Sequence record: PV660448
Strand: one strand, 5' to 3'
Origin: Escherichia phage LF82-4
Length of the DNA: 64,000 nucleotides
The notes under the pieces were generated by a model, which saw only the letters and a list, made by a program, of their open reading frames with translations, was not told the DNA's origin and did not search any database. The translations under genes were made by a program, and so were the position numbers. Shown piece after piece: positions 3,181-24,900 of this stretch; position 1 is the first letter of the stretch; each line of letters opens with the position of its first letter.

Positions 3181-3210
3181 CTTATTTCCTTGTTGTTTGA
3201 CGATAGATTA

Positions 3211-3235: not shown

Positions 3236-3237
3236 TA

Positions 3238-4117: not shown

Positions 4118-5109
4118 TATTGAACCTTATTAATATAAGTTAACAGCTCTTTAGTTTGTTCCCAACTGATGCACGCATCGGTAACGGAAACGCCATAGGA
4201 CATATTATCAGAAATTTTTTGATTTCCTTCATGTAGGAACGATTCTATCATAATTCCTTTGACCAAATCATTAGCTGCTAAATTTTTACCAATACCAATT
4301 TGATTGCTATAATGCCCATCAGCGTTTGCATGGCTACAGTCAACCATTACATAATGATTCAGACCTACTGCCCTTGCTTTGTTAGAAGCTTCTTGAATAT
4401 CAGAAGAATGATAGTTCGGGCCGTTGGTCCCGCCACGCAATACGATATGCGTATTCTGATTACCTTCAGCTTCAACAATGCCTACAGTACCATCGACGTC
4501 CATACCCATATACCGATGAGGCCAGGCGGCACTATACATCGCGTCTGTAGCTACTTTAATAGAACCATTGGTTGCGTTCTTGAAGCCTACGCACATCGGT
4601 AGACCTGAAGCAATTTCACGATGTGTCTGACTTTCAGTCGTACGGGCGCCAATAGCAACCCATGAGAAAATACCAGAAAGATACTTAATCGTGAATGGGT
4701 CTAATACTTCAGTTGCTAATGGAAGTCCCATACGTAGAAGTTTACGACACAATGTTCGTGCAACTATAAGACCGTGGTTCATATCAAAACTTCCGTCAAG
4801 ATATGGATCATTTACAAGACCTTTCCAACCTACGGTAGTTCGAGGCTTTTCAAAATAAACGCGCATCACTAACAGAACATTAGGAAGACGAGTTTGAAGT
4901 TCAGCCAGACGTTTGCCGTATTCAACCGCGGCAATAGGGTCATGAATTGAACAAGGACCTACAACAATAAGTTTGCGTGGGTCTTCACCGTTCATAATCG
5001 AATTAACTTGTTCGCGATGAGAAGCCACTTGTGATGCGTAAGCTTCCGACAAAGGAATAATCTCAGCCAGTTCTTTTGGAGAAATAAGTTTTCCGACGAC
5101 AGGTAACAT
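4117..5109 (-). CDS. 3-deoxy-D-arabino-heptulosonate-7-phosphate (DAHP) synthase, class I (AroG/AroF/AroH-like)
   Basis: 330 aa with hallmark motifs LIVVGPCSIHD, RVYFEKPRTTVGWKGL, GARTTESQTHRE, GFKN, DCSHAN, ESFLHEGNQ, VTDACI; stop/start overlap with cd. Confidence 0.8.
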   Translation of the reverse strand: MLPVVGKLISPKELAEIIPLSEAYASQVASHREQVNSIMNGEDPRKLIVVGPCSIHDPIAAVEYGKRLAELQTRLPNVLLVMRVYFEKPRTTVGWKGLVNDPYLDGSFDMNHGLIVARTLCRKLLRMGLPLATEVLDPFTIKYLSGIFSWVAIGARTTESQTHREIASGLPMCVGFKNATNGSIKVATDAMYSAAWPHRYMGMDVDGTVGIVEAEGNQNTHIVLRGGTNGPNYHSSDIQEASNKARAVGLNHYVMVDCSHANADGHYSNQIGIGKNLAANDLVKGIMIESFLHEGNQKISDNMSYGVSVTDACISWEQTKELLTYINKVQ

Positions 5110-5229
5110 AACAATCCTTAGGAGATATAAACAGATTCTGATTCAACAATACCTTTAACCGGATTAGACAGGCTAAGTTGGTAGTGCTCAGATTTATGAC
5201 CATTCTCGATAGTAATGAGATAGCTCTCA

Positions 5230-5466
5230 TTATAGTGTTCCATATACTCGAGTTGCTTCAACAAGACCATCACTGCCTAATTTAAGATTAGTAATTTGGT
5301 CACCATCTTTAGGATTAACGATTATGAGAAAAGAACGTGGAGATTCTTGAATAACTCGTAATGTTGCATCCTGGAAACGTTCAGACACTTTATTGATGAG
5401 TGCTTGAGCAAATTCTTTTACTTTAATCTGAAATTCGTGTACTGTAATTGGATTTTCACTTAGCAT
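5230..5466 (-). CDS. hypothetical protein (about 78 aa; start at internal Met after promoter)
   Basis: ORF track ORF 5230-5571 trimmed to first ATG downstream of promoter 5495-5524 with RBS GAGGAAA. Confidence 0.4.
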   Translation of the reverse strand: MLSENPITVHEFQIKVKEFAQALINKVSERFQDATLRVIQESPRSFLIIVNPKDGDQITNLKLGSDGLVEATRVYGTL

Positions 5467-5494
5467 TTCAATTTCCTCATTTGTTGGTAGAGTT

Positions 5495-5524
5495 ATAGTA
5501 TCACAACTCCACCATGTTGTAAAC
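5495..5524 (-). promoter_or_regulatory. T4-type early promoter
   Basis: minus-strand GTTTAC-N18-TACTAT. Confidence 0.5.
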
Positions 5525-5800
5525 TTAAATTGCAAAACATTTAATTTCTTGTGAATCGAAATCAACTTCACACTGAATTACTAGTTCAGCATCAAGACCA
5601 AACACAACAATCACATGAGCCGAGCTGGGCAACAATGTAACAGACACAGAATCCACTTGGTCAGGCACCAGAGTATTCAAAACGTAGAGTAGTTCAGAGT
5701 GGACCTTAAGCTCGGTAGCAGTATCCAGCTTATCAAAGAAATGATTTGCGATAATCTGACTAAAAACGACCTTTACAATTTCAGAATATTTAGGGAACAT
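5525..5800 (-). CDS. hypothetical protein (91 aa)
   Basis: ORF track. Confidence 0.4.
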   Translation of the reverse strand: MFPKYSEIVKVVFSQIIANHFFDKLDTATELKVHSELLYVLNTLVPDQVDSVSVTLLPSSAHVIVVFGLDAELVIQCEVDFDSQEIKCFAI

Positions 5801-5807
5801 AATTACC

Positions 5808-6032
5808 TCAGTGTACAGTATTTACTTTAACTCGAACAACAAATTGCTCGGTCGGTTCGCCTACAGGAACAAACTCTACATGATATTCGCCTTTGTAACG
5901 AGTATTCAGGTCGTTACGAATTTCGGTAAGCTTGTTGATTAATGTAGAACTCATATTAAGTCCTACTAGTTTACGAAGCATTTTGTATGCTTCATCTTCG
6001 ATTTCATGATGTTTATCGTACATAATTTTCAT
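5808..6032 (-). CDS. hypothetical protein (74 aa)
   Basis: ORF track. Confidence 0.4.
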   Translation of the reverse strand: MKIMYDKHHEIEDEAYKMLRKLVGLNMSSTLINKLTEIRNDLNTRYKGEYHVEFVPVGEPTEQFVVRVKVNTVH

Positions 6033-6203
6033 TTAACCATTCAATTGCCTGGTCGACGTTATCAAATATACCACCGTCCAAACGTTCTTCATGCTCATAG
6101 TCCAGCACATCAATACCGAACTGTCCATTTACTAAAGGCCAGGCTACAAACAAATATTCTTTATGCTGTTCGATGGCCTCAATCACTTCATATAATCGTT
6201 TCA

Positions 6204-6204
<1 letters not shown>
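6013..6204 (-). CDS. hypothetical protein (63 aa)
   Basis: ORF track; ATGA overlap with pseT stop. Confidence 0.4.
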
Positions 6205-7290
<1,086 letters not shown>

Positions 7291-7291
<1 letters not shown>

Positions 7292-7590
7292 TATTTTATT
7301 CCTAAGAAAGTTTCAAGAATACGAATGTTATGCTCGCGCCGGTCTTTATTAATTTCAGCAACGTTTTTATTAATTGACGTACTTCTAACGTTTGAAGAAA
7401 TAAATTTAATCATATGACTTTTGAGTTGTTGCAAATCCAACCCTTTTTCTTTAGCAGCTTTACGAAGAGCTTTACCTGCTTCATCTAGTGCCTTTGCTGC
7501 ATCTTTGTCATAATTGCCAAGTGACATTCCACGACAGATATCAATATACTCATCAGACCGTTTGATGTAATTCTCTAGTAATGTTTTCAT
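7291..7590 (-). CDS. hypothetical protein (99 aa)
   Basis: ORF track; promoter upstream. Confidence 0.45.
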
Positions 7591-7618
7591 TTAGATTTCC
7601 TCAATTATCCATAGGAGC

Positions 7619-7648
7619 ATTATAATCTGCTCCTGAGAGTTTGTAAAC
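7619..7648 (-). promoter_or_regulatory. T4-type early promoter embedded in inverted repeat AGGAGCA/TGCTCCT
   Basis: minus-strand GTTTAC-N18-TTATAAT. Confidence 0.5.
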
Positions 7649-7872
7649 TATTTTACTAAAGATTCAATATACTCGTGAAGAGCTTTAGTCGCTACTGCCC
7701 ACTTATTCTGATATTCATTTTTCAGATTAGCACGAGACTGAACTAACAATCGGTCATTAGTCGGAGGCAAAGATTCTAATCGTTGAATCTGGCGCCCATA
7801 AATCATAGCCGCCATTTCAGATTCATAGATAAGCCCTTTAATGTGTTCATGCTGTTCTTTAGTCATTGGCAT
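7648..7872 (-). CDS. hypothetical protein (74 aa)
   Basis: ORF track. Confidence 0.45.
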   Translation of the reverse strand: MPMTKEQHEHIKGLIYESEMAAMIYGRQIQRLESLPPTNDRLLVQSRANLKNEYQNKWAVATKALHEYIESLVK

Positions 7873-8153
7873 TTTTCCTCTTTTAAACCACTACGATAAT
7901 AACATAACATAGTCTTCTGGTCATGTACATATCTTTTTACGTCGTTTAACCAGATACGAAATTCTTGAGAGTCTTCAAATGGCATTCCAACCCATGGATT
8001 ACCATCAATAACCTTTACTTGCCATTTCTGGTTATATTCAACAATAGATTCAGGCCATTGTGGATGTAAAGTTTCTTTAGGGCTTAAGGGCACATCCTGG
8101 GCACATCCAGCCAAAATGCCAATAGATAATACAACTGCGGATAATTTAATCAT
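7863..8153 (-). CDS. predicted lipoprotein (96 aa)
   Basis: N-terminal signal with lipobox LAGC. Confidence 0.5.
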   Translation of the reverse strand: MIKLSAVVLSIGILAGCAQDVPLSPKETLHPQWPESIVEYNQKWQVKVIDGNPWVGMPFEDSQEFRIWLNDVKRYVHDQKTMLCYYRSGLKEEKCQ

Positions 8154-8506
8154 TCTGAGAGCTTCCTGAGGTCTTCTGCAAAGGAATCGAAGGACCTGTT
8201 GATTTGTTTTTCGACCAATCCTGGCTTACTTGCCACCACGTTCTTCTTCTTCGAATCCTTACGGAGCTTTTCATTTTCAGCCTTAAGTTGGTCAACTAAA
8301 ACACGGTTCTTATAAGTCATTTCTTCGATTGACTGATATTGAACTTTGAAGTCGTCTAATACTTTAGCATTGTTTTTAGCAGCCTCTTTAACAGAGGCCA
8401 ATTCAGTATTCAACGAATCAACTTTGTTGTTTAAGACAACTATTGTTACCGTAGAAACTAGAGCAAAAGCTGCTACTATAGCGTAAATCGGATTTACTTT
8501 AAGCAT
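8150..8506 (-). CDS. hypothetical membrane-anchored coiled-coil protein (118 aa)
   Basis: N-terminal hydrophobic helix then charged K/E-rich region. Confidence 0.45.
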   Translation of the reverse strand: MLKVNPIYAIVAAFALVSTVTIVVLNNKVDSLNTELASVKEAAKNNAKVLDDFKVQYQSIEEMTYKNRVLVDQLKAENEKLRKDSKKKNVVASKPGLVEKQINRSFDSFAEDLRKLSE

Positions 8507-8994
8507 GTTTTAATAATCTCAATGATTTCATCTCGGGATAATCCATTGATAAGAACGGTTTTCAAACCATCACACTGGATTTTGTACGATTCAAACAATA
8601 CACACAACTCTTCTGCTGTATGATATGGACTTGAGATTCCGAGGCGGTTGAATTTGTCGGTAAGAGGGTCGCAAATAATGTAGAATTTTATGCCTGCGAT
8701 ATGTACGTTTGGTTGACTAATATTAATGAACACATTAGCGTCATATTTAGTCAAATTGTTTTGAAGAAATTCTACCATAGCATTAACTGCTTCCGGCATC
8801 GCTTCACGTTTCTCTTCGGTGTAACGTGTTGAATATTCCTTTTGCTTTAACTTCTTTTTAGCATTTTTCGCTAGAGTAGTACGAAGGTCCGTAAGATAAC
8901 CAACTGCACGGCCTTTCTTAAAGACCCGGATTCCATCTGTAGAATCACCAAATGCTGCCACAACCATATCGTTAGTAATCAATTGCATATTCAT
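8494..8994 (-). CDS. alc: Alc (blocks host transcription on cytosine DNA), start at internal ATG 8992-8994
   Basis: about 166 aa from ATG preceded by RBS GAGGAG and early promoter; position between pseT cluster and rnlA as in T4. Confidence 0.6.
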   Translation of the reverse strand: MNMQLITNDMVVAAFGDSTDGIRVFKKGRAVGYLTDLRTTLAKNAKKKLKQKEYSTRYTEEKREAMPEAVNAMVEFLQNNLTKYDANVFINISQPNVHIAGIKFYIICDPLTDKFNRLGISSPYHTAEELCVLFESYKIQCDGLKTVLINGLSRDEIIEIIKTCLK

Positions 8995-9024
8995 AATTTT
9001 CTCCTCGTGTTGTTGATAAAAACC

Positions 9025-9054
9025 ATAGTAACACCATCCTTGGTGTTTGTAAAC
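9025..9054 (-). promoter_or_regulatory. T4-type early promoter
   Basis: minus-strand GTTTAC-N18-TACTAT upstream of alc. Confidence 0.5.
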
Positions 9055-9056
9055 CA

Positions 9057-10190
<1,134 letters not shown>

Positions 10191-10207
10191 TCAGTTAGTT
10201 TTTTTAA

Positions 10208-10237
10208 ATTGTACCACAATCCTTGTGGTATGTAAAC
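10208..10237 (-). promoter_or_regulatory. T4-type early promoter with 8-bp inverted repeat in spacer
   Basis: minus-strand GTTTAC-N18-TACAAT upstream of rnlA. Confidence 0.5.
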
Positions 10238-10647
10238 TACTTTTTCTTATGTTGGATATTCCAAGGCGGGTTGAACTTTTTGATAAAAAGTGGTTCTTCA
10301 AGGTCCATTGTTGCAATGGTCATTGAACCAAGTTCGTTAGTGACTGAAAGGTCAAAACATTGGCGGGCCCAGAATTCAACCTTTTTGCCTTGCATTAAGG
10401 CATCCAAAATCATAAGTGATTTTCTTGAATCTGAAGTCTGGTCTTTTCGATTTATGGCTGTTCGATAATAGTTAATGCGTTTCTTTAAATTCTTGGTTTT
10501 ACCAATATACACAAGTTCGTCATCTATAGCAATAGCGTATATGACATTTTTCTTATTAGGGGCATCAATGGTTTTAATTGTTGCATCTTCTAATAGCTCC
10601 AATTCTATATATTTAATAAAGGAATATTCGGCGGCAATATCTTTCAT
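10237..10647 (-). CDS. denA: endonuclease II (GIY-YIG family)
   Basis: 136 aa; motif VIYAIAIDDELVYIGKTKNLKKRINYYR; recalled near-identity to T4 DenA. Confidence 0.85.
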   Translation of the reverse strand: MKDIAAEYSFIKYIELELLEDATIKTIDAPNKKNVIYAIAIDDELVYIGKTKNLKKRINYYRTAINRKDQTSDSRKSLMILDALMQGKKVEFWARQCFDLSVTNELGSMTIATMDLEEPLFIKKFNPPWNIQHKKK

Positions 10648-10649
10648 AA

Positions 10650-10669
10650 TAAAGTGGGACCGAAGTCCC
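10650..10669 (-). terminator. stem-loop GGGAC-CGAA-GTCCC (terminator or RBS-sequestering hairpin)
   Basis: between nrdB stop and denA start. Confidence 0.45.
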
Positions 10670-10673
10670 GTCC

Positions 10674-11852
10674 TTAGAAATATTTTTTGTATGAATTGAT
10701 TACATTTTGGTCTACATCATTATCAATTTGTGCAACAAGATAAGAACTGATTTCAACTTCCTGAGGAGCTGCTTGAACTAAATCAGAGTTCAGATATTCA
10801 CGAATCCAAGGATACGGATGCTTGGTCGGAGCGTCAGTGATTGGGCATGGCAAACCGCACTGTTTCATACGAGACACAGACAAGTAATCAACAAAAGCAC
10901 ACATACTCTGCGTATTGATACCTGGACATGTACCATCTTTAAAAAGGTGTGCAGCCCATTCCTTCTCTTGACTATTTACTTCCATAAAAATGTCAACTGC
11001 TTCTTGTTCACATTCTTTAGCAATTTGAACCCACTCATCACCGTCAGTACCAGATTGAAGTTGACGGATAATGTACTGAGTACCCTTGAGATGGAGTTGT
11101 TCGTCACGAGCAATGAACTTCATAATCTTTGCATTGCCTTCCATAATTTCCATATTTTTATGGAAGTTGAAAGTACATGCAAATGATACGTAAAAACGAA
11201 TAGCTTCTAAGGCGTTGATAACATGCAAACAGAGATAAAGAGACTTCATTAGGTCATGTTTACATTCTTCCATGTGCATAAGACTATTTGAATATGCATC
11301 TAAATCATATTCATTTTCGGAAAAACATTTAAAAATTTCTTTAGCATTTTCCCATTCACGTGTTTTAACTAGAACATCATCATAATATTTGCCGATTGAT
11401 TCCGCACGTTTCATAATTGCTTCATCTAATACAATCTCATCAAATACCTTCGATGGATCAGTATAAAGATTTCGCATGATATGAGTATATGAACGAGAGT
11501 GAATGGTTTCACTGAATGTCCATGTAGCAACCCATGTATCTAATGAAGGGTCAGAAATCAGTGCCATAAGTACCGCAGATGGGGCCCTGCCTTGGATAGA
11601 ATCTAATAACGATTGATACTTAAGATTGTTTGTAAAGATATCCTGTTGAAACTGAGGAAGCTTATTGAACTGCGCAGAGTCCAACATCAAGTTTACCTCT
11701 TCCGGGCGCCAAAAAAACGACAATTGCTTTTCAATAAGCTCTTCAAAAACTTTATGGCGTTGAATATCGTAACGCGCAAGGCCAAGACCGGAACCAAAGA
11801 ACATTGGTTCATTCAAAACATCAACTTTTTGGGTATTAAAAACTGTACTCAT
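10674..11852 (-). CDS. nrdB: ribonucleotide reductase small subunit (uninterrupted)
   Basis: 392 aa; di-iron ligand pattern; no intron. Confidence 0.9.
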   Translation of the reverse strand: MSTVFNTQKVDVLNEPMFFGSGLGLARYDIQRHKVFEELIEKQLSFFWRPEEVNLMLDSAQFNKLPQFQQDIFTNNLKYQSLLDSIQGRAPSAVLMALISDPSLDTWVATWTFSETIHSRSYTHIMRNLYTDPSKVFDEIVLDEAIMKRAESIGKYYDDVLVKTREWENAKEIFKCFSENEYDLDAYSNSLMHMEECKHDLMKSLYLCLHVINALEAIRFYVSFACTFNFHKNMEIMEGNAKIMKFIARDEQLHLKGTQYIIRQLQSGTDGDEWVQIAKECEQEAVDIFMEVNSQEKEWAAHLFKDGTCPGINTQSMCAFVDYLSVSRMKQCGLPCPITDAPTKHPYPWIREYLNSDLVQAAPQEVEISSYLVAQIDNDVDQNVINSYKKYF

Positions 11853-11902
11853 TATATTCTCTCAATAGTGACTCATCCATGAGTCAATTATAAACAAAAT
11901 TC

Positions 11903-14158
11903 TTAAAGCTTACAAGCGGAGCAATCTTCAGCTTTAGGCGTTTCTAACTCATAGTCATCTGTACCAGAACCATCTCGAGTGTTATGATAGTAAAGGTTCT
12001 TACCACCAAAGTACCAGAAGTAAAGCAAGTCATCAAGCATTACAGACATTGGCACTTTGCCTTTCTCAAAGACTGAAGGGTCGTAGTATGTATTAGCAGA
12101 AGCAGATTGGCACACCCATTTTAACATGATAACAACTTGTGTCAGATAAGGCTTATTACCTTTCTTAGAGAGTTTCCACGCATAGTCATAAAGACCCATG
12201 TTGTGTTCAATATTAGGAACTACTTGACGGAAATTACCTTCTTTAGATTCTTTAATACTTACTGGGCCACGAGGTGGTTCAATACCATTTGTGCTATTTG
12301 AGACCTGGCTGCTTGATTCGCATGGCATGAGAGCACTGAGTGTACTGTTACGAATCCCGTGTTCTTTAAGTTCGGCTCGTAGTTCTTCCCAATCACATAC
12401 ATAGTTTGGGGCTGCGATTTGGTCAATCTTTTTATTGTACCAGTCGATAGGTAATTCGCCTCGAGACCATTTAGTGTCTGAATAATACTCGCAAGGTCCT
12501 TTTTCTTTGGCGAGTTTGATTGAAGCTTTGATAAGGCCATATTGCAATCTCTCAAACAATTCATGAGTCAAATCGTTAGCGTCTTCATATGAAGCAAAGT
12601 TAGAAGCTAACCATGCAGCATAGTTCGTCACACCAACACCGAGATTTCGACGCTTTTTGGCTTTTAAAGCTTCTGGAACCGGATAGTCTTGATAGTCTAA
12701 CAGGTTATCAAGTGCACGTACTTGTACTTCAGCAAGTTCATTAATTTTATCTTGGTCTTGCCAATCAAATTTATCTAATACAAAAGCAGATAACGTGCAT
12801 AAACCAATTTCAGCATCAGGGCCATTCACATCATTAGTTGGAATAGCGATTTCACAACATAAGTTACTCTGACGAATTGGAGCTTTTTCACGAATAAATG
12901 GAGTGTAGTTATTCGTGTTATCAACAAACTGTGGATAAATTCGAGCAGTACCAGAACGTTCAGTCATGAACAATTCAAAGAGTTCTAGTGCTTTGATTCT
13001 TTTCTTTCTGATTGTTGGGTCTTTTTCAGCTTTCTCATAAAGCTCACGGAATTTATCTTGATCTTCAAAGAACGAGTAATATAGTTCGCCTGACATTTCG
13101 TGAGGGCTAAATAAAGTAATATAATCATTTTTGCCAAGGCGTTCCATCATGAGGTCATTAATCTGAATTCCATAGTCCATATGTCGAATACGGTTTTCAT
13201 CCACGCCTTTGTTATTTTTCAGAACTAATAGGTTCTCTACTTCTAAGTGCCACATCGGATAATACGCTGTAGCAGCACCACCACGAATACCACCTTGAGA
13301 ACAAGATTTTACTGCAGTTTGGAAATGTTTCCAGAATGGAATAACACCTGTATGTCGAACTTCACCCATACCAATCTTAGAACCTTCTGCACGAAGCATA
13401 CCAACGTTGATACCGATACCAGCTCGTTTAGAAATATATTCAATAATTGATGCTGAAGTTTTGTTAATAGATTTTAACGAATCACCGGCTTCAATAACTA
13501 CACAACTAGAGAACTGGCGAGTTGGAGTACGAGCACCTGCCATAATTGGGGTTGGCAATGAAACTTGATGAGTAGAAACGGCATCATAAAAACGAATAAT
13601 ATGTTTCAAACGGTCATGAGTTTCGTCTTGATGTAAGGCCATGCCAATAGCCATGATAGCAAACTGCGGAGTTTCATAAATCTTACCGGTTGTTTTATCT
13701 TTAACCAGGTATTTTTCTTTAAGCTGCATAGCACCAGCATAAGTCAAGTCAAAGTCTCGTTCATGTTTAATCTGTGAATCGAGATAAATGATTTCTTCTG
13801 CTGAATATTGAGACAACAGCTCAGGGTCGTATTTGCCTTCATTAACACAATAAGAAATATGGTCGATAAAAGCAGGCGGTTCAAACTGCCCATATACATC
13901 TTTACGAAGTGCAAACATTAATCCTTTAGCGGCAACATATTGATAGTCAGGTTCTTCGACAGAAATCAAGTTAGCTGCAACTTTAATACAAATCTTCTGG
14001 ATATCTTTGGTGCTCATCCCATCAACCAGATGAGTCTTAATTTCTTCATACAATTCGTATGGGTCGATTTGTGTTCCTTCACATTGCCAAGTTAAGACTT
14101 GAATAATTTTCTGTGCATCAAAATTTTGGGATACCCCACTGCTCTTAATTACTTGCAT
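11903..14158 (-). CDS. nrdA: ribonucleotide reductase large subunit
   Basis: 751 aa; recalled high similarity to T4 NrdA. Confidence 0.9.
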   Translation of the reverse strand: MQVIKSSGVSQNFDAQKIIQVLTWQCEGTQIDPYELYEEIKTHLVDGMSTKDIQKICIKVAANLISVEEPDYQYVAAKGLMFALRKDVYGQFEPPAFIDHISYCVNEGKYDPELLSQYSAEEIIYLDSQIKHERDFDLTYAGAMQLKEKYLVKDKTTGKIYETPQFAIMAIGMALHQDETHDRLKHIIRFYDAVSTHQVSLPTPIMAGARTPTRQFSSCVVIEAGDSLKSINKTSASIIEYISKRAGIGINVGMLRAEGSKIGMGEVRHTGVIPFWKHFQTAVKSCSQGGIRGGAATAYYPMWHLEVENLLVLKNNKGVDENRIRHMDYGIQINDLMMERLGKNDYITLFSPHEMSGELYYSFFEDQDKFRELYEKAEKDPTIRKKRIKALELFELFMTERSGTARIYPQFVDNTNNYTPFIREKAPIRQSNLCCEIAIPTNDVNGPDAEIGLCTLSAFVLDKFDWQDQDKINELAEVQVRALDNLLDYQDYPVPEALKAKKRRNLGVGVTNYAAWLASNFASYEDANDLTHELFERLQYGLIKASIKLAKEKGPCEYYSDTKWSRGELPIDWYNKKIDQIAAPNYVCDWEELRAELKEHGIRNSTLSALMPCESSSQVSNSTNGIEPPRGPVSIKESKEGNFRQVVPNIEHNMGLYDYAWKLSKKGNKPYLTQVVIMLKWVCQSASANTYYDPSVFEKGKVPMSVMLDDLLYFWYFGGKNLYYHNTRDGSGTDDYELETPKAEDCSACKL

Positions 14159-14245
14159 ATATTCCTCAGTATAGGTTGATAGACATTACTCCAAACGGGA
14201 TAGTATTTATCCCGTTAATTTATTATACACTTTTAAACTGAAGCG

Positions 14246-14500
14246 TTAATTATCCTCAGCAATAATTTCTTCATATTCTTTAGGAGTTAAGACTGTAATA
14301 TCGAAATAAACCAGAGGCTCTTTTTCCATACCGAATCCACCACAGAATTCACGATATTCATAAATTCGTTCATGTGAATGGCAAATGAATCGTTCACCTT
14401 TAACTGTGATTTCACTATTCGGTGAAGGGATATCCAGTTCACTTGGATTTTTCATTTCAAAAATTGTGGTGCCATATGAATTAATAAAACGTAAAATCAT
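14246..14500 (-). CDS. hypothetical protein (84 aa), translationally coupled to td
   Basis: ATG one nt after td stop (TAAAATG); trimmed from ORF 14246-14563. Confidence 0.45.
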   Translation of the reverse strand: MILRFINSYGTTIFEMKNPSELDIPSPNSEITVKGERFICHSHERIYEYREFCGGFGMEKEPLVYFDITVLTPKEYEEIIAEDN

Positions 14501-14501
14501 T

Positions 14502-14813
14502 TTATACCGCCATTTTAGCTTTGATAGCTGGATGTGATTCGTAATTTTTAAGAATGAAATCACTCGGATTCATATGCTCTGTTACCCAATGAAGCTGTAA
14601 TGTCGTGCTCCAATCAGAGAATCCTTCAGGCCAATCAATTTTAAGTTCACACAGTTCTTTAGGCTCACGACGAAGAACTTCTTTGCATTGTTCTACATGA
14701 TTGCTGTAGATATGCGTGTTGCCGCCTGAGAACACTAAATCACCTGGGATAAGGTTACACATCTTCGCTACAATATGCGTCAAGGCAGCGTACGAGGCAA
14801 TGTTGAATGGTAG
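14502..14813 (-). CDS. td: thymidylate synthase, exon 2
   Basis: encodes LPFNIASYAALTHIVAKMCNLIPGDL... C-terminal TS segment; joins exon 1 at 15831. Confidence 0.85.
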   Translation of the reverse strand, partial: LPFNIASYAALTHIVAKMCNLIPGDLVFSGGNTHIYSNHVEQCKEVLRREPKELCELKIDWPEGFSDWSTTLQLHWVTEHMNPSDFILKNYESHPAIKAKMAV

Positions 14814-15830
14814 CATTATGTTCAGATAAGGTCGTTAATCTTATCCCGGAATTATATCCAGCTGCATGTCACCATGCAGAGCAGACTATATCTCCAACTT
14901 GTTAAAGCAAGTTGTCTATCGTTTCGAGTCACTTGACCCTACTCCCTAAAGGGATAGTCGTTAGGCATTTATGTAGAACCAATTCCACTTATCAGATTTT
15001 ACACGGTAAGTAACTAATCCTGATGAAATTTCAAAATGTCTAGCCGCATCGGCTGCACATTCAAAAATAATCCCGTCGCATGAAATCTTTTTGATGTTAG
15101 CTGGCTTTTTGCCTTTCATCTTTTCAGATAGTTTAGTTTTAGTTTTTTCTGAATGTTTGTGATTAAAGAACGGGTTATTTTCAGCTGAACGTTTTCGACA
15201 CTTTCCACAAGTGTTGGCTGAAGTTGGTATACGAACACCACATTTACAAAACTTGTGGTTTTCCGGATTCCATCTACCATTTTTACTTCCGTGTTTACCA
15301 TAAATAGCTTTTCGACCATCAGATCCAAGCTTAAGCATCTTAGCTTTAACAGTTTCAGCTCGTTTCTTAGCAATTTCTTCCTTTAATGGATGATTCGAAA
15401 ATGTATCACCAAAGGACGCATCGGCGATATTATATCCATTAATTTTAGAATTTAGCTCGTTAATCCAAAAATTTTCTCGTTCAATAATCAAATCTTTCTC
15501 ATATGGAATTTCTTCCAATATAGAGCATTCAAAAACATTACCGTGTTTATTAAAAGATCTTTGAAATTTTATAGAAGAGTGAACACCATTTTCAAGGTCT
15601 TTAAAATGTCTCTTCCATCTTTTCTCAAAATCTTTAGCACTTCCAACATACACTTTACCATTTAAAGTGTTTTTAATCTGATAAATTCCACTTTTCATAA
15701 ACACCTCTTTAAAATATAGAAGTATTTATTAAAGGGTGGTCCTACAATTTAGCACGGGATTGTCTACTAGAGAGGTTCCCCGTTTAGATAGATTACAAGT
15801 ATAAGTCACCTTATACCCAGGCCTAAATTA
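14814..15830 (-). mobile_element. group I self-splicing intron in td (about 1017 nt) carrying I-TevI ORF
   Basis: 5-prime end TAATTTAGGCCTGGGTATAAGGTGACTTATACTTGTAATCTATCTAAACGGGGAACC matches recalled T4 td intron; exon 1 ends in U, intron ends in G; splicing restores TS frame. Confidence 0.85.
14961..15698 (-). CDS. I-TevI: GIY-YIG homing endonuclease I-TevI (intron-encoded)
   Basis: 245 aa from MKSGIYQIKNTLNGKVYVGSAKDFEKRWKRH...; recalled near-identity to T4 I-TevI. Confidence 0.9.
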   Translation of the reverse strand: MKSGIYQIKNTLNGKVYVGSAKDFEKRWKRHFKDLENGVHSSIKFQRSFNKHGNVFECSILEEIPYEKDLIIERENFWINELNSKINGYNIADASFGDTFSNHPLKEEIAKKRAETVKAKMLKLGSDGRKAIYGKHGSKNGRWNPENHKFCKCGVRIPTSANTCGKCRKRSAENNPFFNHKHSEKTKTKLSEKMKGKKPANIKKISCDGIIFECAADAARHFEISSGLVTYRVKSDKWNWFYINA

Positions 15831-17201
<1,371 letters not shown>

Positions 17202-17203
17202 TT

Positions 17204-17395
17204 TTATTTCCTCAGATATTTTTTGACCATATAGTATTGGAATTCAAACATTCTTGAATCAATAACAAAAATTTGTTTTCTTGGGCATTCATTTAATCGT
17301 ACAGCTGAACACCCAAACGCAAGTTCATGATATTGTTTCTTTTCTATTTCTGAAAGGAAAGTTCTAAGATAACGGAAAAATAGACAGTTAATCAT
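17204..17395 (-). CDS. hypothetical protein (63 aa)
   Basis: ORF track. Confidence 0.4.
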   Translation of the reverse strand: MINCLFFRYLRTFLSEIEKKQYHELAFGCSAVRLNECPRKQIFVIDSRMFEFQYYMVKKYLRK

Positions 17396-17397
17396 AA

Positions 17398-17646
17398 TTA
17401 TTTCCTCAGATTTTTCTTAACAACTTTCCAATCGGCTTTAAACGATTCAACATCAGAATGGTGAATCCAGAATCCTGCGCTTTCACCATCTTCGTAGAGT
17501 GGACATCCATCACATTCTTCATTCCAACCCATTTCACGTAAAGATGTTTCAGCTTGTTCAAGGAGTTCAGCATCTTTATCAAGGATGTTGAAGTACCATT
17601 TGCCTTTAACTTCAGAGTCGTTAATGCTTTGGCGTTGTAATTTCAT
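17398..17646 (-). CDS. hypothetical protein (82 aa)
   Basis: ORF track. Confidence 0.45.
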   Translation of the reverse strand: MKLQRQSINDSEVKGKWYFNILDKDAELLEQAETSLREMGWNEECDGCPLYEDGESAGFWIHHSDVESFKADWKVVKKNLRK

Positions 17647-17711
17647 TTTATTCTCCGTTGCTTCATTTGTTTTGACAGGGTAATAGTATCACACCATTAC
17701 CCTGTTGTATA

Positions 17712-18074
17712 CTATTTTATTCCAAAAATTTCTTTAATTTCTGCAATCACATCTCGAGCATTTTCTGTAGTCACTTCAAAGATGAGTGATTGTTTAGAAA
17801 TAGACTCTGGAGATACCTCGATGAAGTGTTTAAACTCATCATCATAAAGCTCAAAATATGAACCTGGCTTACCATCAAAACCGAATTCAGTACCGTCTCG
17901 CATAGTTACACGGGTTACACATTTATCATCATCATAATCTGTGTTCATGTCTTTTACAACAAAACTAGGACCATGAAGCTCAATCAAAGCCAGCATATCG
18001 GCGTTTTGTGGGCATTCATTGGCGAAGATAGCTTTACATTCTGGATTGATGATATAAGTTTTTCCAATTTTCAT
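17712..18074 (-). CDS. hypothetical protein, paralog A (120 aa)
   Basis: clear sequence similarity to ORF 18136-18522 (M.IGK.YIINP..K..FANEC...LIE.HGPSFVV...RVTM.DGTE). Confidence 0.55.
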   Translation of the reverse strand: MKIGKTYIINPECKAIFANECPQNADMLALIELHGPSFVVKDMNTDYDDDKCVTRVTMRDGTEFGFDGKPGSYFELYDDEFKHFIEVSPESISKQSLIFEVTTENARDVIAEIKEIFGIK

Positions 18075-18106
18075 TTTGATTTCCTCTCATTTGTTTTGAT
18101 AGGACT

Positions 18107-18136
18107 ACTATAACATAGCCCTATCTGATTGTACAC
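18107..18136 (-). promoter_or_regulatory. T4-type early promoter
   Basis: minus-strand GTGTAC-N18-TATAGT. Confidence 0.45.
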
Positions 18137-18522
18137 TACTTTTTAAAAGTTTTTTGCAAAAGTTTGATGATTTCGTCGACGTTGGTTTCATCTACGATAC
18201 AATGGATTTTTGTTACACCTAAAGTTATACCTTCGTTAGTAGATTGAGGCTTTTCTAAAGTTACCTCAGTAAAGTATTTGAATTCTTCAGAGTAAATCTC
18301 AAAATACGTCTCAAGTGGGCCACCAGCCATGTATTCAGTGCCGTCTTCCATAGTTACACGTACCACACAGTCACCAGCACAATCATCACTTTCCATTTCA
18401 TCTACAACAAAACTAGGTCCGTGCTTCTCTATTAAATTTAGCATCATTACATTGCAACGGCACTCGTTAGCAAAGTCATCTTTAAATAAAGGGTTAATGA
18501 TATAAGATTTTCCGATTTCCAT
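18136..18522 (-). CDS. hypothetical protein, paralog B (128 aa)
   Basis: tandem paralog of 17712-18074. Confidence 0.55.
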   Translation of the reverse strand: MEIGKSYIINPLFKDDFANECRCNVMMLNLIEKHGPSFVVDEMESDDCAGDCVVRVTMEDGTEYMAGGPLETYFEIYSEEFKYFTEVTLEKPQSTNEGITLGVTKIHCIVDETNVDEIIKLLQKTFKK

Positions 18523-18551
18523 TTTGATTTCCTCATGTTGTTGATAGGTTT

Positions 18552-18580
18552 ATACTAACACATTCAGGGAAGAAGTAAAC
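18552..18580 (-). promoter_or_regulatory. T4-type early promoter
   Basis: minus-strand GTTTAC-N17-TAGTAT. Confidence 0.5.
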
Positions 18581-18603
18581 AACTTTTTCAGCAATTTACA
18601 GAT

Positions 18604-18629
18604 ACTCAAAAGGGAGACCGAAGTCTCCC
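18604..18629 (-). terminator. rho-independent terminator after gene 32 (GGGAGAC-CGAA-GTCTCCC plus T-run)
   Basis: same hairpin sequence as at 2109-2126. Confidence 0.6.
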
Positions 18630-18635
18630 AATTTA

Positions 18636-19535
18636 TTATAGACCAGCTAACAGGTCATCGAGGTCGCCATCGTCAGAAGACGAGGAACTCATGAAGTCAT
18701 CTTCAGTTTTTGCAGAACCAAAGGCTTCCATGTCTTTATCAAAATCGTCGAGGTCAGAAGCAACTTTATCTGCAACAGAAGCTGCTGCGGCTGCTGCACC
18801 ACCGAGAGCGGCAGTACCAAGAACCTTAGCGAAAGATTCATTTAATTTTTCAAAGGACTTGAACTGGTCTTTAGCCGTCAAAGTAGTAAGGTCTACCATC
18901 TGGTCATATAGTTCTTTCTGGAATGCTTCGTCATTAATACGAGGAATTTCAGATTGTCCCAAGAATTTAGATTCGTCATAGTTGCTAAAACCAGAAACCT
19001 GCTTAGCTTTCAGAACGAAGTTGGCACCTTCAAACGGGCAAGTAACATCAACCGGAGTTTCACCCATTTCGGTATCAACTGCAATCATTGCATTGATTTT
19101 GTCCCAAATCTTTTTACCGAAACGATATTTAAATACTTTACCTTCATTATCTGGAGCTTGAGGGTCTTTAACAACCAGAATATTAGCCCAATAAGAAGTT
19201 TTACGTTTCAGTTGAGAATATTCAGTTTTGTTGGTATTGTACAGGTCATTTTTACTAATGTACTGACATACAGGACAAGAGTCGTAATCACCATGTGTAG
19301 AAGAGCAATTTTCAATATACCATTTACCATTTTTCTTGAAACCGTGGTTAACAAGAATTGCAAATGGTAGTGCGTCATCAGTTTTTGCTGGCAGGAAACG
19401 AATTACCGCTTGACCATTACCTGATGCATCTAGCTTCAGCTTCCATTCGCCTTTATCTTCTGAAGAGAAACCTTTGTTACCGTTCAGTTTAGCCATTTGA
19501 GCAGCGAGGTCAGCAGTAGATTTACGTTTAAACAT
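18636..19535 (-). CDS. 32: single-stranded DNA-binding protein gp32
   Basis: 299 aa; zinc ligands; acidic C-terminus; recalled high similarity to T4 gp32. Confidence 0.9.
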
Positions 19536-19620
19536 TATATTTACCTTTATTTAGATTATTTAGATTATTTAATTTATTTACAGTTGGTTGCTACGACACT
19601 TATACCTCGTAGCTGGTATG
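19536..19620 (-). promoter_or_regulatory. gene 32 translational operator (A/U-rich unstructured tract with UAAAU repeats plus upstream pseudoknot-forming hairpin)
   Basis: minus-strand ...CAGCTACGAGGTATAAGTGTCGTAGCAACCAACTGTAAATAAATTAAATAATCTAAATAATCTAAATAAAGGTAAATATATG; resembles recalled T4 gene 32 autoregulatory leader. Confidence 0.6.
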
Positions 19621-19623
19621 ATT

Positions 19624-19631
19624 TATTTATA
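19624..19631 (-). promoter_or_regulatory. late promoter motif TATAAATA upstream of gene 32
   Basis: exact TATAAATA on minus strand about 90 nt upstream of start. Confidence 0.45.
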
Positions 19632-19660
19632 AAGTAATTTTAACACACAAGAAATAAAGC

Positions 19661-20314
19661 TTAATACTTACATGATTTGATTGTTTCTATGAACAATTTC
19701 TTAGCAGCATTTCCATCGATTTGAAGTATTTTTCGATATGCCTTTAATTTGGTAGAATAATTTTGCCAGACTAAATTGTCAGTAAGTTCGTCATGCTTAT
19801 CTATAATATTCAAGAATGAATCCAACAACAAGAAGGTTTCAAATGAAATTATATTGCTTTGTAGCAATTTAAATATGTAGCTCGACTGAACTTTATTATT
19901 ATAATCAAATATCTCTTGAAGCGCACTAACTTCCACTTTCTTGCTGAAATAGTAGATGTTACGTACATCTTCAGCAAACGTCTCCTTGGCTTGTTTGAGA
20001 CGTCCAATATATTCCCTATAGAAAACTAATGCATCAGCGTCTGATATCTCACCAATCCACGCATCTTGGTTAGCAACTAAGTTACTGATGAATATCAAGG
20101 TGAGTTCCTTTAACTTATATTTCTCTGCTAGTTTCTCAAAGAAATATTTATCTCGGCGTTTTTGATACGCATTATCCGAAACACGCATGCACCAGTTATA
20201 TTTGATTACGTCATACCGACCACCAAAATGGTTTTTGCACATCAAGTATAGTTTGTATACCGATTTTCCATTAATATAACGTTCTCCATCAGGAGGCATA
20301 CGTATTTTAATCAT
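19661..20314 (-). CDS. 59: helicase loader gp59
   Basis: 217 aa; recalled high similarity to T4 gp59. Confidence 0.85.
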   Translation of the reverse strand: MIKIRMPPDGERYINGKSVYKLYLMCKNHFGGRYDVIKYNWCMRVSDNAYQKRRDKYFFEKLAEKYKLKELTLIFISNLVANQDAWIGEISDADALVFYREYIGRLKQAKETFAEDVRNIYYFSKKVEVSALQEIFDYNNKVQSSYIFKLLQSNIISFETFLLLDSFLNIIDKHDELTDNLVWQNYSTKLKAYRKILQIDGNAAKKLFIETIKSCKY

Positions 20315-20649
20315 AATAAGAAATCTAACGTATTAGTTTTTTCACCACGAGCAACTGATGGGCGAAGCATGTTTTCGTCAATTGCTTCGCTTGTAATTTT
20401 TTCAACAATTCCTGTAGGAATAAATTTAGCAAATTGTGTTTCTGGAATAGAATTTTCTTCCAAGAAAGCAGTTGTTGCTTCTAAATAAGACATACCAAAT
20501 TGTTCAACCATAGATTCGATAATGAATCCGTTTTCTTGACGGTCAAGCAATTTAGCGATATCATCTTTATCGTGTTTTACTGCTAATTCTTGTTCAGATA
20601 AACCGGCCTCATCAACCGGTTTAATATCACTTAGTGAAAACTGTGTCAT
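20311..20649 (-). CDS. 33: late transcription co-activator gp33
   Basis: 112 aa; recalled high similarity to T4 gp33. Confidence 0.8.
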   Translation of the reverse strand: MTQFSLSDIKPVDEAGLSEQELAVKHDKDDIAKLLDRQENGFIIESMVEQFGMSYLEATTAFLEENSIPETQFAKFIPTGIVEKITSEAIDENMLRPSVARGEKTNTLDFLL

Positions 20650-20896
20650 AAAGCTCGACTACCTCTTCGTTTTCAGCTTCAAATTGGTCACGAGCATCTT
20701 TATGATAAAGAGCTAACAAACGATTAAACATTTTTCCATCGACACCAAGCTCTTCTTTAGCACGAGTACGAATGTCTTTAATCAGTTCATTATAACCAGA
20801 AATTTTAAGTTTGTTATCGGAAGCTTCCTTGACTAGTTTAGCCAGTTCTTCACCATGCACATCTTGATTAAATTCAACTGCTTCTTTCTTAGCCAT
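20627..20896 (-). CDS. dsbA: dsDNA-binding protein DsbA
   Basis: 89 aa; position between 33 and rnh as in T4. Confidence 0.7.
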   Translation of the reverse strand: MAKKEAVEFNQDVHGEELAKLVKEASDNKLKISGYNELIKDIRTRAKEELGVDGKMFNRLLALYHKDARDQFEAENEEVVELYDTVFTK

Positions 20897-20903
20897 GTTT
20901 ACC

Positions 20904-21821
20904 TCAGAATTCGTTAATTACACTTGTTAATTTAGAAAGACCCGATTTTACAAAGTATGAATAAATCTTGCCTTTAGGTTGTTGTTTATACGAGTTATAA
21001 TACTCTATAATGGTTGAAGCAATATTATCAGGGATATAATCAAAATCAATGAGAACCAAATTTTCTTGATACCGTTTATATTCTTCTGCACTTAATAATA
21101 CTTCAGCTTGAGAACGGTCATTGGCAATTGCTTCAATAATCGTTGTTTTCATGCTTGGAGTTCGTTCGCCTTCAACTCGAGTAAACCAGAAGTCACCACG
21201 AACTCGAACAGACGCAACACCATCTTTACGGTCGCCTTTAAGAATTTTAGTCATGCAATCAATTTCAGCAGAACCATTCTTAATTTTAACCCATTTTTTC
21301 TGCGGTGGCGACCACTGTTTAACGTTAGGGTACTTGTGTAATTGTGTAAAGTCACCATCTGATGCAACAATACACACCTTATGACCAGCTAATGACAAAT
21401 ATTTAGTTAATACACCGATATGGTCATCCGCTTCGTATTTGTCAATATCCATTACAACGTATGGCATATATTTCTTAATCTCATCAACAACTTGATGAAG
21501 TGCAGTAAAATATCCTTCCCAATCCCACTTTGAAGCTTCACGATCGGTTTTACGATTTTTCTTATAATAGTAAGCAAAGTCACGACGCCAATATCCAGAA
21601 GTAGCGTTATCCATGCACAATACAAATTTTGTATAACCTTGCTTACGGAACATCACTACGTTTTTACGAATTGAATTCAAGACTACATGGCGAACCATCG
21701 GAACAGTAATTTTATCACCGTCTTCAAAGTTGTTTAATGCAGCTGCCAATGCAATGTTACTAAAGTCGGCAAGTGCAATACCTTCTTTGTAATCTTCATT
21801 CAACATCATTTCTAAATCCAT
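20904..21821 (-). CDS. rnh: RNase H / 5-prime to 3-prime exonuclease (FEN family)
   Basis: 305 aa; recalled similarity to T4 Rnh. Confidence 0.9.
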   Translation of the reverse strand: MDLEMMLNEDYKEGIALADFSNIALAAALNNFEDGDKITVPMVRHVVLNSIRKNVVMFRKQGYTKFVLCMDNATSGYWRRDFAYYYKKNRKTDREASKWDWEGYFTALHQVVDEIKKYMPYVVMDIDKYEADDHIGVLTKYLSLAGHKVCIVASDGDFTQLHKYPNVKQWSPPQKKWVKIKNGSAEIDCMTKILKGDRKDGVASVRVRGDFWFTRVEGERTPSMKTTIIEAIANDRSQAEVLLSAEEYKRYQENLVLIDFDYIPDNIASTIIEYYNSYKQQPKGKIYSYFVKSGLSKLTSVINEF

Positions 21822-21899
21822 ATGAACCTCTTGTTCAGTTAGTCAACTTGGACTATAGTAACATACTAGTTCGAAAGCGTAAATAGTCTTTTACTCATT

Positions 21900-21907
21900 T
21901 ATAAATA
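21900..21907 (+). promoter_or_regulatory. late promoter TATAAATA for gene 34
   Basis: exact TATAAATA about 35 nt upstream of gene 34 ATG. Confidence 0.6.
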
Positions 21908-21941
21908 GTAAAATAGAACACATAATGATAAGAGGACTACC

Positions 21942-24900
21942 ATGGTTGACATCAAACGTAAGTTCAGGGCCGAAGATGGTCTTGACGCAGGCGGTGATAA
22001 GATAGTTAACGTTGCGCTTGCTGACCGCACAGTTGGCACCGATGGCGTGAACGTTGACTTTTTGGTGCAAGAAAACACCGTACAGAATTATGACGATACG
22101 CGCGCGTATACAAAAGATTTTATTGTTCTTTATGATAATCGTTTTTATCAAGCTTTAAGCGATATTCCAGCTCCGGCAGGCCCTTTCTCTTTGGCTAAAT
22201 GGAAGGCAACTCGTACAGATGCAGATTGGATTACAGTTCAAGGCGGAGATTTCCAATTATCAGTAGGTAACTCTATTGCGGTTGATACTTCAGCTGGCAC
22301 TGATATTAATTTCACTTTGCCTCAAAATCCTTTAGATGGCGATACAGTTATTTTGTCTGATATTGGTGGTAGAGTAGGCTATGTAAAAGTTCAAATTACT
22401 GCAGAGGCTCAAAGTATTGTAAACTTTAGAGGACAACAGGTTCGTTCAGTTTTAATGACGCACCCAAAATCTAAAATGGTCTTCATTTTTAGCAACCGCC
22501 TATGGCAAATGTATGTTTCTGATTACGAACGTAATGCAGTCACAGTAACTCCTGCTAAGCCATATCAGGCGCAACCTAACGATTTTATCATTCGACGTTT
22601 TACATCAGCCGCTCCTATTAATATTACATTGCCTCGCAATGCTAATAATGGCGATATTATTAATTTAGTTGATTTAGACAAATTAAACCCGTTATATCAC
22701 ACAATTGTCAAAACTTACGATGATACAACTTCTATACGAGAAGCCGGTGTTCATGTAGCAGAAGGACGTAATACTGCGGAAGCATTCTTTGTTTATGATT
22801 CTGCTAATAGCTTATGGCGTGTTTGGGAAGGTGACCAGAAATCTCGTTTACGTATAGTTCGTAATGATACTGATTTACGCCCTAATGAAGAAGTTCTTGT
22901 TTTTGGAACTAATAATGATACAATCTCGACGGTAAATCTTACTTTGCCTACAGATATTTTGTCTGGTGATACTGTTAAAATATCGTTGAATTATATGCGT
23001 AAAGGGCAAACTGTAAAAATTAAAGCTGCTGAAGGCGATACAATTGCTAGCAGTATTTCTTTATTACAGTTCCCAAAACGTTCAGAGTATCCACCTGATG
23101 CACAATGGGTTTCTGTTAGTGAGCTGGAATTTAATGGCGATACTTCGTATGTACCTGTACTTGAGTTAGCTTATATAGAAGATTATTCATCTGAAACAAA
23201 ATATTGGGTAGTTCAACAAAACACTGTAACCGTCGAACGAGTCGATGCATCGAGCAATACAACTCGAGCTCGTTTAGGTGTTATTGCTCTTGCTTCTCAA
23301 GCGCAAGCAAATGTCGATTTAGAAAATGCTCCTGGTAAAGAACTTGCTATTACTCCGGAAACATTAGCAAATCGTACAGCAACTGAAACTCGTCGTGGTA
23401 TTGCTCGTATTGCAACAACTGCACAAGTTAACCAGAATACCGATTTTGCATTCCAAGACGACTTGATTATTTCTCCTAAGAAATTGAACGAACGTACAGC
23501 AACTGAAACCCGTAGAGGTGTTGCTGAAGTTGCAACTCAGGATGAAACTAATGCTGGCATAGATGATACCACTATTATTACTCCTAAGAAATTGGATGCC
23601 CGTCAAGGTTCTGAAGTTTTATCTGGTATTGTAAAATACACATCTACGACTGGTACTACAGCGGCTACTGTTCGTGGTAATGCTGGGACTAACGTTTATA
23701 ACAAAGCCGTAGATAATTTAACTATTTCTCCAAAGGCTCTTGACCAGTATAAAGCTACACATACTCAACAGGGCGCAGTAATTCTTGCTATTGAAAGTGA
23801 AGTTATCGCTGGTGAATCACAAGCCGGTTGGGCTAATGCTGTAGTGACTCCTGAAACTCTGCATAAGAAAACTTCTACTGATGGACGTATTGGTTTAATT
23901 GAAATTGCTACGCAAGCAGAAACTAACACTGGGACTGATTATACTAGAGCAGTAACGCCTAAGACGTTAAATGATAGGAAAGCTACGGAAGGATTATCCG
24001 GCATAGCCGAACTTGCTACGCAAGTTGAATTTGATACTGGAACTGATGATACTCGTATCTCGACTCCACTGAAAATTAAAACTCATTTTGATTCTTCTGG
24101 CCGTACCAGTGTTAATTCTGATTCCGGACTTATTGAAGAAGGAACCTTGTGGAACCATTATACTCTTGATATTTCTAAAGCAAATGAAACACAACGTGGT
24201 ACACTTCGCGTAGCGACTCAGGCAGAATCTAATGCCGGAACTTTAGATGATGTTCTTATTACTCCTAAAAAACTTTTAGGGACTAAGTCCACTGAAACGT
24301 CTGAAGGCGTGATTAAGGTTGCTACTCAGGCTGAAACTGTAACAGGAACTTCTGCTAATACTGCTGTATCGCCTAAGAATTTAAAATGGATTGTCCAGGA
24401 TGAACCAACATGGGCTGCTACTACGGCAATTCGTGGATTCGTTAAAACTTCATCCGGTTCTATTACATTCGTTGGTGACGATACTCAAGGTAGTACCCAG
24501 GATCTGAATCTTTACGAGAAAAATAGTTATGCTATTTCTCCATATGAATTAAACCGTGTACTTGCTAACTATTTGCCATTGAAAGCTAAAGCTGTAGATA
24601 GTAATCTGTTAGATGGTCTAGATTCTCTTCAGTTCATCCGTAGAGACATCGACCAGACGGTTAATGGTTCTTTAAGTCTTACTAAACAGACCAACCTGAG
24701 TGCTCCTTTAGTATCTACAAGCACTGCTTCTTTTGGATCTGAAGCATCTGTTACTCGTAGATTAACTCTTAATGACTCTAGCGGTTCCGAAATAGTTTTC
24801 ACTAAAGGAACTCAATCTCTTAGTAATAAAGAGAATTTCGTTGTTAGAGCATGGGGTAATAGCGCTACAGATGGTGCCCGTGATACAGTATTTGAAGCGG

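Follow-up and report, generated by a model that had tools for sequence, protein, structure and literature searches.

The td intron of bacteriophage T4, together with the endonuclease I-TevI that it encodes, is the founding example of a mobile intron in a bacterial virus. In T4, two other nucleotide-metabolism genes, nrdD (I-TevII) and nrdB (I-TevIII), also harbour a mobile group I intron that contains an endonuclease ORF. Similarly, a mobile group I intron with an endonuclease ORF interrupts thyA, again a nucleotide-metabolism gene, in Bacillus mojavensis, and its endonuclease I-BmoI is a GIY-YIG isoschizomer targeting the homologous thymidylate synthase site (PMC5009752). The I-BmoI, I-TevII and I-TevIII systems share this general organization with the locus described here and differ from it in their hosts or genes and in their endonuclease sequences. 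In the td intron of T4, the late promoter is overlapped by the I-TevI operator, and a hairpin in which this region pairs with the ribosome binding site keeps I-TevI from being translated except on late transcripts, so that splicing is protected (PMC2988022).

The locus lies on the minus strand of a stretch of 64,000 nts of Escherichia phage LF82-4 (PV660448), hereafter called the window. With a probability of about 0.96, it represents the self-splicing group I intron known from td of T-even-type phages, with a functional-looking I-TevI gene, in this case in a Mosigvirus genome. The td/I-TevI mobile intron is already known as a kind of element and belongs to ordinary biology, hence little is changed for biology at large. 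The only additions made here are an exact annotation, a natural co-conversion tract that can be bounded and a testable side hypothesis on cleavage preference.

The initial annotation, made from the sequence alone, had divided td into two exons separated by an insertion of roughly 1017 nts, whose 5′ end it matched to the T4 td intron and whose internal ORF it took for I-TevI. It had further proposed that exon 1 ends in U, that the intron ends in G and that the ATG at which the ORF of exon 2 opens is intron sequence. These assignments hold at every point (Table 1). The junction falls precisely between positions 175 and 176 of the Pfam thymidylate synthase profile (Thymidylat_synt, 266 positions), and 16379-15831 joined to 14813-14502 gives 861 nts in frame, with the junction reading ...DVFLG/LPFNIASY.... 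In phage LF82-9, td is uninterrupted (861 nts), the intron being precisely missing, and its product shows no amino-acid difference from that of the join. As listed, the ORF of exon 1 covers 15828..16379 (-) and its TAA stop codon (15830-15828) corresponds to intron nts 1-3, while the ORF listed for exon 2 (14816-14502) starts with a "Met" ATG (14816-14814) made of the last three bases of the intron. The intron itself opens with UAAUUUAGGCC and closes with ...CAUAAUG, its last G being 14814. The nucleotide-exact annotation is td = join(16379..15831, 14813..14502), minus strand. Many GenBank relatives are mis-annotated at this point, with two "thymidylate synthase" CDSs, the second of which starts from the last AUG of the intron (for example L009 1715-2029). 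In the records of some relatives, a remark reads "unable to determine exon/intron boundaries".

Table 1. Positions of the td locus, its ribozyme helices, its conversion tract and the neighbouring genes in the window.
Feature	Position	Strand	Details
td exon 1	15831..16379	-	549 nts, 183 codons; ends ...CUUAGGU; ORF and Pfam Thymidylat_synt 1-175/266
td group I intron (IA2-type)	14814..15830	-	1017 nts; opens with UAA, which stops exon 1 in frame; last base omega-G (14814)
td exon 2	14502..14813	-	312 nts including stop; begins CUACCAUUC (L-P-F-N...); Pfam Thymidylat_synt 176-266/266
P1	15816..15837	-	exon CUUAGGU (15837-15831) with internal guide GCCUGGG (15822-15816); U.G at the 5′ splice site
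P2 hairpin	15800..15815	-	UAUAAG-GUGA-CUUAUA; 2 pairs with compensatory change
5′ strands	15738..15792	-	P3 15792-15787, P6 15753-15752, P6a 15746-15738
P4-P5 hairpin, complete	15782-15755	-	
3′ ribozyme half	14825..14980	-	P6a 3′ 14980-14972, P6 3′ 14966-14965, P7 5′ 14959-14954, P7.1 14953-14944, P7.2 14938-14927, P3 3′ 14920-14915, P8 14914-14895, P7 3′ 14889-14884, P9 14879-14862, P9.1 14861-14846, P9.2 14845-14825
P10		-	UAG (15825-15823) with CUA (14813-14811); 90.5% of cells paired, 3/3 pairs covary
I-TevI leader	15688..15739	-	late-promoter-like AATAAATA (15730-15723) within operator-like CCCTTTAATAAATAC (15736-15722)
I-TevI gene	14961..15698	-	245 aa and stop; intron nts 133-870; Pfam domains, T4 alignment, PDB 1I3J, 1MK0, 1LN0
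CAACG, I-TevI cleavage motif	15853..15857	-	exon 1, -27..-23 from the insertion site
Minimal co-converted tract	14745..15858	-	intron and flanks -28 to +69; all 12 td differences from LF82-9
Maximal tract	15953-14601	-	-123 to +213; 100% identity with Logan contig L020
frd	16963-16376		upstream of td
DUF5496 gene	14500-14246		downstream of td
nrdA	14158-11903		
nrdB	11852-10674		
GIY-YIG denA-like endonuclease	10647-10237		
RNA ligase 1	10181-9057		

Alignment with the T4 td intron (NC_000866.4, T4p237/T4p238) gives 89.5% identity over the full 1017 nts at a shared insertion site, and the insertion is the orthologue of the T4 element. The 109 differences between the two introns are concentrated in the ORF (100 differences), with about 6 in the 261-nt ribozyme core. 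The host gene, the site after the Gly of DVFLG/LPFN, the length of 1017 nts, the position of the ORF in the P6a loop, the I-TevI leader with its operator and hairpin, and the CAACG motif are common to both. However, the ORF of the window has diverged from that of T4 by 13.5% in DNA and 12% in protein, including the substitutions C39V, T95S and Q158P. In P1, the window has a G-to-A change in the exon and an A-to-G change in the guide, with pairing kept in both. The backbones also differ, the window being Mosigvirus and T4 Tequatrovirus. The length of the intron varies among the T4 records themselves, with 1017 nts in the reference NC_000866.4 (L002) and 1016 nts in other T4 and T6 records, which reflects a single-base length change upstream of I-TevI with the same exon boundaries.

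The I-TevI ORF, which the ORF lister starts two codons upstream at a GTG, contains three Pfam domains, GIY-YIG (E=9e-17), I-TevI_ZnF (E=2e-16) and I-TevI_DNA-bd (E=2e-31), and its product aligns with T4 I-TevI without gaps at 88% identity. The catalytic domain aligns end-to-end with the solved structures 1MK0 and 1LN0, the GIYQ, YVG, KRWKRH and IERENFW motifs are conserved relative to both T4 and these structures, and the catalytic residues R27 and E75 are present. The four zinc-finger Cys are also conserved, and residues 130-245 align end-to-end with the DNA-binding domain in PDB 1I3J. The gene is intact, of full length and functional-looking. The 3′ strands of P6a and P6 consist of its final codons (W-F-Y-I-N-A-stop), and the last codons of I-TevI likewise form P6a/P6 strands in T4 (PMC2988022).

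The leader of the gene, CCCTTTAATAAATAC included, is almost identical to that of T4. This region is predicted to form a hairpin (-16.4 kcal/mol, z -2.8) by pairing with the Shine-Dalgarno sequence GAGG (15707-15704) and the AUG (15698-15696). By homology with T4, the leader of the window may act as a late promoter, as an operator and in translation control. The operator resembles the homing site at 13 of 20 positions in the window phage and at 13-14 of 20 when T4 is computed alike, a comparison which is uninformative.

Within the phage collection, the Mosigvirus isolates LF82-9 and LF82-1, each annotated with a single 861-nt td, have the genomes nearest to the window. They align with 96% of window positions 1-25000, at 99.6-99.7% identity, and the unaligned 4% is the intron. 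LF82-9 is 99.7% identical over the 14.8 kb adjoining td. The near-isogenic comparison is limited to window 5001-23000, the genomes being mosaic beyond about 23 kb, and in this interval LF82-9 differs at 14 positions, 12 of which are clustered in td at -28..+69 of the insertion site. When exon 1 is compared with nts 1-549 of the LF82-9 td, 6 bases differ and all lie at -28..-4. The intron is thus present in one allele and absent from the other at a single site, next to flanks that appear co-converted, which is the signature by which a homing intron is recognized. In addition, the tract spans the position of I-TevI cleavage (-23/-25), and the double-strand-break repair model requires a converted tract across this position (PMC2988022).

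A donor-like allele is found in the public Logan contig L020, in which the intron has no mismatch over 1017 nts and the flanks are identical from -123 to +213. Its backbone differs from that of the window, with 100 mismatches in 4969 nts, 39 of which fall in the part of exon 1 that precedes -123. The exact I-TevI protein is encoded on four public Logan contigs, one of which, L021, matches the window at 100% over 6125 nts. Furthermore, the intron-containing Mosigviruses TH12 and JM17 have the flank haplotype of the window at -28..+69, with 1-2 differences. Most likely, the td of the window goes back to an intronless, LF82-9-like td that recently received the intron by homing, from a donor resembling L020, and 28-123 nts of exon upstream and 69-213 nts downstream of the insertion site were most likely transferred with it. 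The ends of the converted tract would then fall between -29 and -123 and between +69 and +213. It is by parsimony that we infer a gain rather than a loss of the intron. Sequences are thus available for three alleles that bound one homing event, with LF82-9 resembling the recipient, L020 resembling the donor and the window representing the product.

The opposite history, in which the intron was ancestral and the LF82 phages lost it precisely through recombination with an intronless td that also replaced -28..+69, is unlikely. When only the window and LF82-9 are compared, the situation is symmetrical and the patch of 12 differences fits either direction. However, the identity of L020 to the window over the intron and -123..+213, within a divergent backbone, would need a second independent transfer, whereas a single homing event from an L020-like to an LF82-like genome accounts for both observations. 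The flank haplotype of the window is also the one that accompanies the intron in TH12 and JM17, and precise loss is much less efficient than homing stimulated by a double-strand break (PMC2988022). An ancestral intron, for which two events are needed, is hence less likely than the single homing event.

Experiments on T4 suggest how a recently acquired intron of this kind would work, with respect to its splicing chemistry, late expression, cleavage activity and direction of transfer. The pre-mRNA would fold into an IA2-type core comprising P1-P9.2, an external guanosine would attack immediately 3′ of the U (15831) that pairs with G in P1, and the terminal G (14814) would then set the 3′ splice site, so that ligation of the exons would yield an 861-nt mRNA and a thymidylate synthase of 286 aa. 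I-TevI would probably be made late, from the late promoter, on a transcript lacking the 5′ arm of the hairpin that otherwise hides the ribosome binding site. The endonuclease would cut an intronless td 23/25 nts upstream of the insertion site, at C-N-N-N-G, and repair of the double-strand break would copy the intron and the neighbouring exon into the cut allele.

In the window, both the CAACG motif and its distance from the insertion site are as reported for T4 (PMC2988022, PMC5009752). The intronless LF82-9 allele reads CAGAG at the cleavage position, in which C1 and G5 are kept and the central triplet is changed. T4 I-TevI is known to leave some CNNNG sequences uncut (PMC5009752), and a literature search found no statement on the cutting of CAGAG by the wild-type enzyme. 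Compared with T4 I-TevI, the window enzyme differs at residues 39, 95 and 158 (C39V, T95S and Q158P), and in directed evolution C39R, T95S and Q158R changed the cleavage preference (PMC5009752). T95S also occurs in natural homologues, whose preference could not be judged since their predicted sites read CAACG (PMC5009752). Motifs taken from intron-containing genomes would be misleading in this respect, because co-conversion overwrites the target with the CAACG of the donor. A Mosigvirus I-TevI with a broadened or shifted preference, which would invade td alleles that T4 I-TevI cuts poorly, is conceivable from these substitutions and from the CAGAG of the sister phage and can be put forward only tentatively. 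The CAGAG of LF82-9 is an exposed, unconverted target, and is usable for testing the preference of natural I-TevI variants of the T95S type.

The initial annotation had made the group I assignment depend on whether P1-P9 could be folded. All helices from P1 to P10 pair, and they are supported by covariation. When the T4-type structure is written onto the window, with the P7 pseudoknot and P10 included, a standard pair is found at every position. The structure contains a P3-P8 core with the P3/P7 pseudoknot, a P4-P6 domain and the IA-specific P7.1 and P7.2, by which group I introns of this type are recognized. The minimum-free-energy fold of the ORF-deleted core, in which the loop was replaced by GAAA, recovers P1, P2, P3, P4, P5, P6, P6a, P7.1, P7.2, P8, P9, P9.1 and P9.2; P7 is a pseudoknot and is therefore absent from this fold. 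Relative to T4, the changes in the window keep pairing, with G.U to A-U and U-A to U.G in P1, U.G to C-G in P6a and G.U to A-U in P9.2.

For covariation, 14 td introns representing six genera of T4-like phages were aligned with MAFFT. In this alignment, 98.5% of cells pair, against 31-44% when the partners are slid by 1-3 columns, and changes on both sides are seen at 24 of the 79 pairs; none of 500 shuffles reached any of the observed measures. Compensatory changes occur in P2, P3, P6, P6a, P7.2, P8, P9, P9.2 and P10. P4, P5 and P7 are invariant in the set, hence covariation is neutral on them. In P1, all 7 pairs form in the window, where U15831 pairs with G15822; across the 14 introns, 99% of P1 cells are paired, one-sided changes that preserve pairing are found at 3 of the 7 pairs and the U.G pair is invariant (14/14). 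The nested helices predicted by RNAalifold agree with the written structure. In P9.1, the alignment of POP12 and PspYZU05 is out of register, and the 6 unpaired cells found there are probably an alignment artefact. The td intron of Erwinia phage Joad was left out of the set, as it occupies a different site in td.

The Rfam Intron_gpI search that had been suggested as a check succeeded only in part. At the gathering threshold, a scan of the whole window gave no match, and the E-value scan found Intron_gpI (RF00028) below threshold, with 34 bits against a cut-off of 50. This partial match aligns only the 3′ half (14862-15062) and mis-aligns ORF sequence to P1-P3. The intron falls below the threshold because a segment of 756 nts, made of the leader and most of the ORF, is looped out of P6a. 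On the same model (cut-off 50), 70-74 bits are reached by the ORF-less orthologues of phages CE1, HMD-9 and HP3.2, the cores of which are nearly identical. The gathering score is an operational and not a biological criterion. Its negative outcome is attributed to the ORF-containing loop and is no evidence against the intron; as a lesson of method, ORF-carrying group I introns go undetected in a scan at this threshold. The E-value scan gave no further group I signal elsewhere in the window, and the other sub-threshold matches in 14700-15950 (Lacto-usp, rli23 and snoRNAs, E>2) were rejected as chance.

It could be argued from the negative gathering scan, and from the two separate "thymidylate synthase" CDSs of many GenBank records, that the insertion has decayed into a relic which no longer splices, or is merely an inserted free-standing endonuclease gene, and that td is a pseudogene or encodes two polypeptides. 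This is very improbable, as no helix is disrupted, the T4 core, shown by experiment to self-splice, differs at only a few positions, which are in loops or preserve pairing, and the "start codon" of exon 2 is the terminal AUG of the intron, with no Shine-Dalgarno sequence upstream. Furthermore, the exons join in frame at Pfam position 175/176 and the I-TevI ORF is of full length. A junction shifted by one base, with exon 1 ending ...GG, an intron whose first and last bases are U(15831) and U(14815), and exon 2 starting GCUA, would still encode Leu-Gly-Leu-Pro and escape the protein comparison, since GGG and GGU are both Gly, but it has almost no chance of being correct, because it breaks the U.G and terminal-G rules, predicts a GGG where the Gly codon of intronless alleles is GGT, and departs from the T4 boundaries, which we take to lie after GGU and after AUG, in agreement with the joined CDS in NC_000866.4.

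The closest td introns in GenBank are those of the Mosigviruses TH12 (MT446390), JM17 (PP400779), AV110/AV115 and SQ17, with 95-96% identity over the intron and a flank haplotype at -28..+69 like that of the window. However, none of them is identical, and the exact allele is found only in unannotated Logan SRA assemblies (L020, L021). The ORF-less td introns of CE1, HMD-9, HP3.2, GRNsp7 and POP12 share the site and the ribozyme core and score above the Rfam Intron_gpI gathering cut-off, but they are only 254-320 nts long, I-TevI being deleted or truncated, whereas the gene of the window is intact. More generally, td introns with a deleted or truncated I-TevI, of 254-446 nts, are found in several T4-like phages (L003, L004, L005, L011, L014, L015), and in HMD-9 and GRNsp7 P6a is replaced by new short hairpins. 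These reduced introns are natural stages of the endonuclease degeneration cycle.

Related elements also occur outside this site. In the jumbo phage Joad of Erwinia (L016), td is interrupted at another position, upstream of the DVFLG codons, by a group I intron that encodes a GIY-YIG endonuclease, and the 3′ half of this intron is about 74% similar to that of the window. Intron nts 43-84, which include the P3-P6 5′ strands, match 42 nts of Mosigvirus KAW3E185 at 100% (L019 1501-1542; MK373782.1 48735-48776), in an unannotated gap between an upstream gene 49-like endonuclease and a hypothetical gene of 771 nts. This match probably marks another, unannotated group I intron. Similarly, the P9-P9.2 end is 93% identical over 74 nts to the interior of the DNA polymerase gene of phage 4HA13 (NC_049466.2 20932-21005), and in Felixounavirus-like phages, as well as phages of Pseudomonas, Klebsiella and others, weaker core matches (70-78%) adjoin genes for HNH endonucleases. 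It appears that related introns of the IA2 type are common among phages and in many cases lack an annotation.

The genes surrounding td are listed in Table 1 in their order. In T4, nrdB is interrupted by an intron; in the window, the gene had been described as uninterrupted and indeed consists of one ORF of 392 aa, in which the Ribonuc_red_sm profile (9-271/281) is matched in a single stretch. Between nrdA and nrdB, LF82-1 and nine siblings (169,999-bp records, among the best matches) have a 642-nt "homing endonuclease" gene (L013 355-996), which is missing from the window and from LF82-9, where only a 50-nt spacer separates nrdA from nrdB (window 11853-11902). This gene is a second endonuclease presence/absence polymorphism in the gene cluster.

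At a larger scale, the window genome is mosaic relative to LF82-9, its closest deposited relative, because identity falls beyond about 23 kb and two short stretches (31287-31754 and 48590-48743) do not align. From the tail-fibre genes on, over window 23001-55000, identity to LF82-9 is down to 96.7-97.9%. Within the otherwise identical 23 kb, about 40 mismatches to LF82-9 are found in window 3001-5000, in the region of dCMP deaminase and a DAHP-synthase-like gene, and this patch looks like another short recombination tract.
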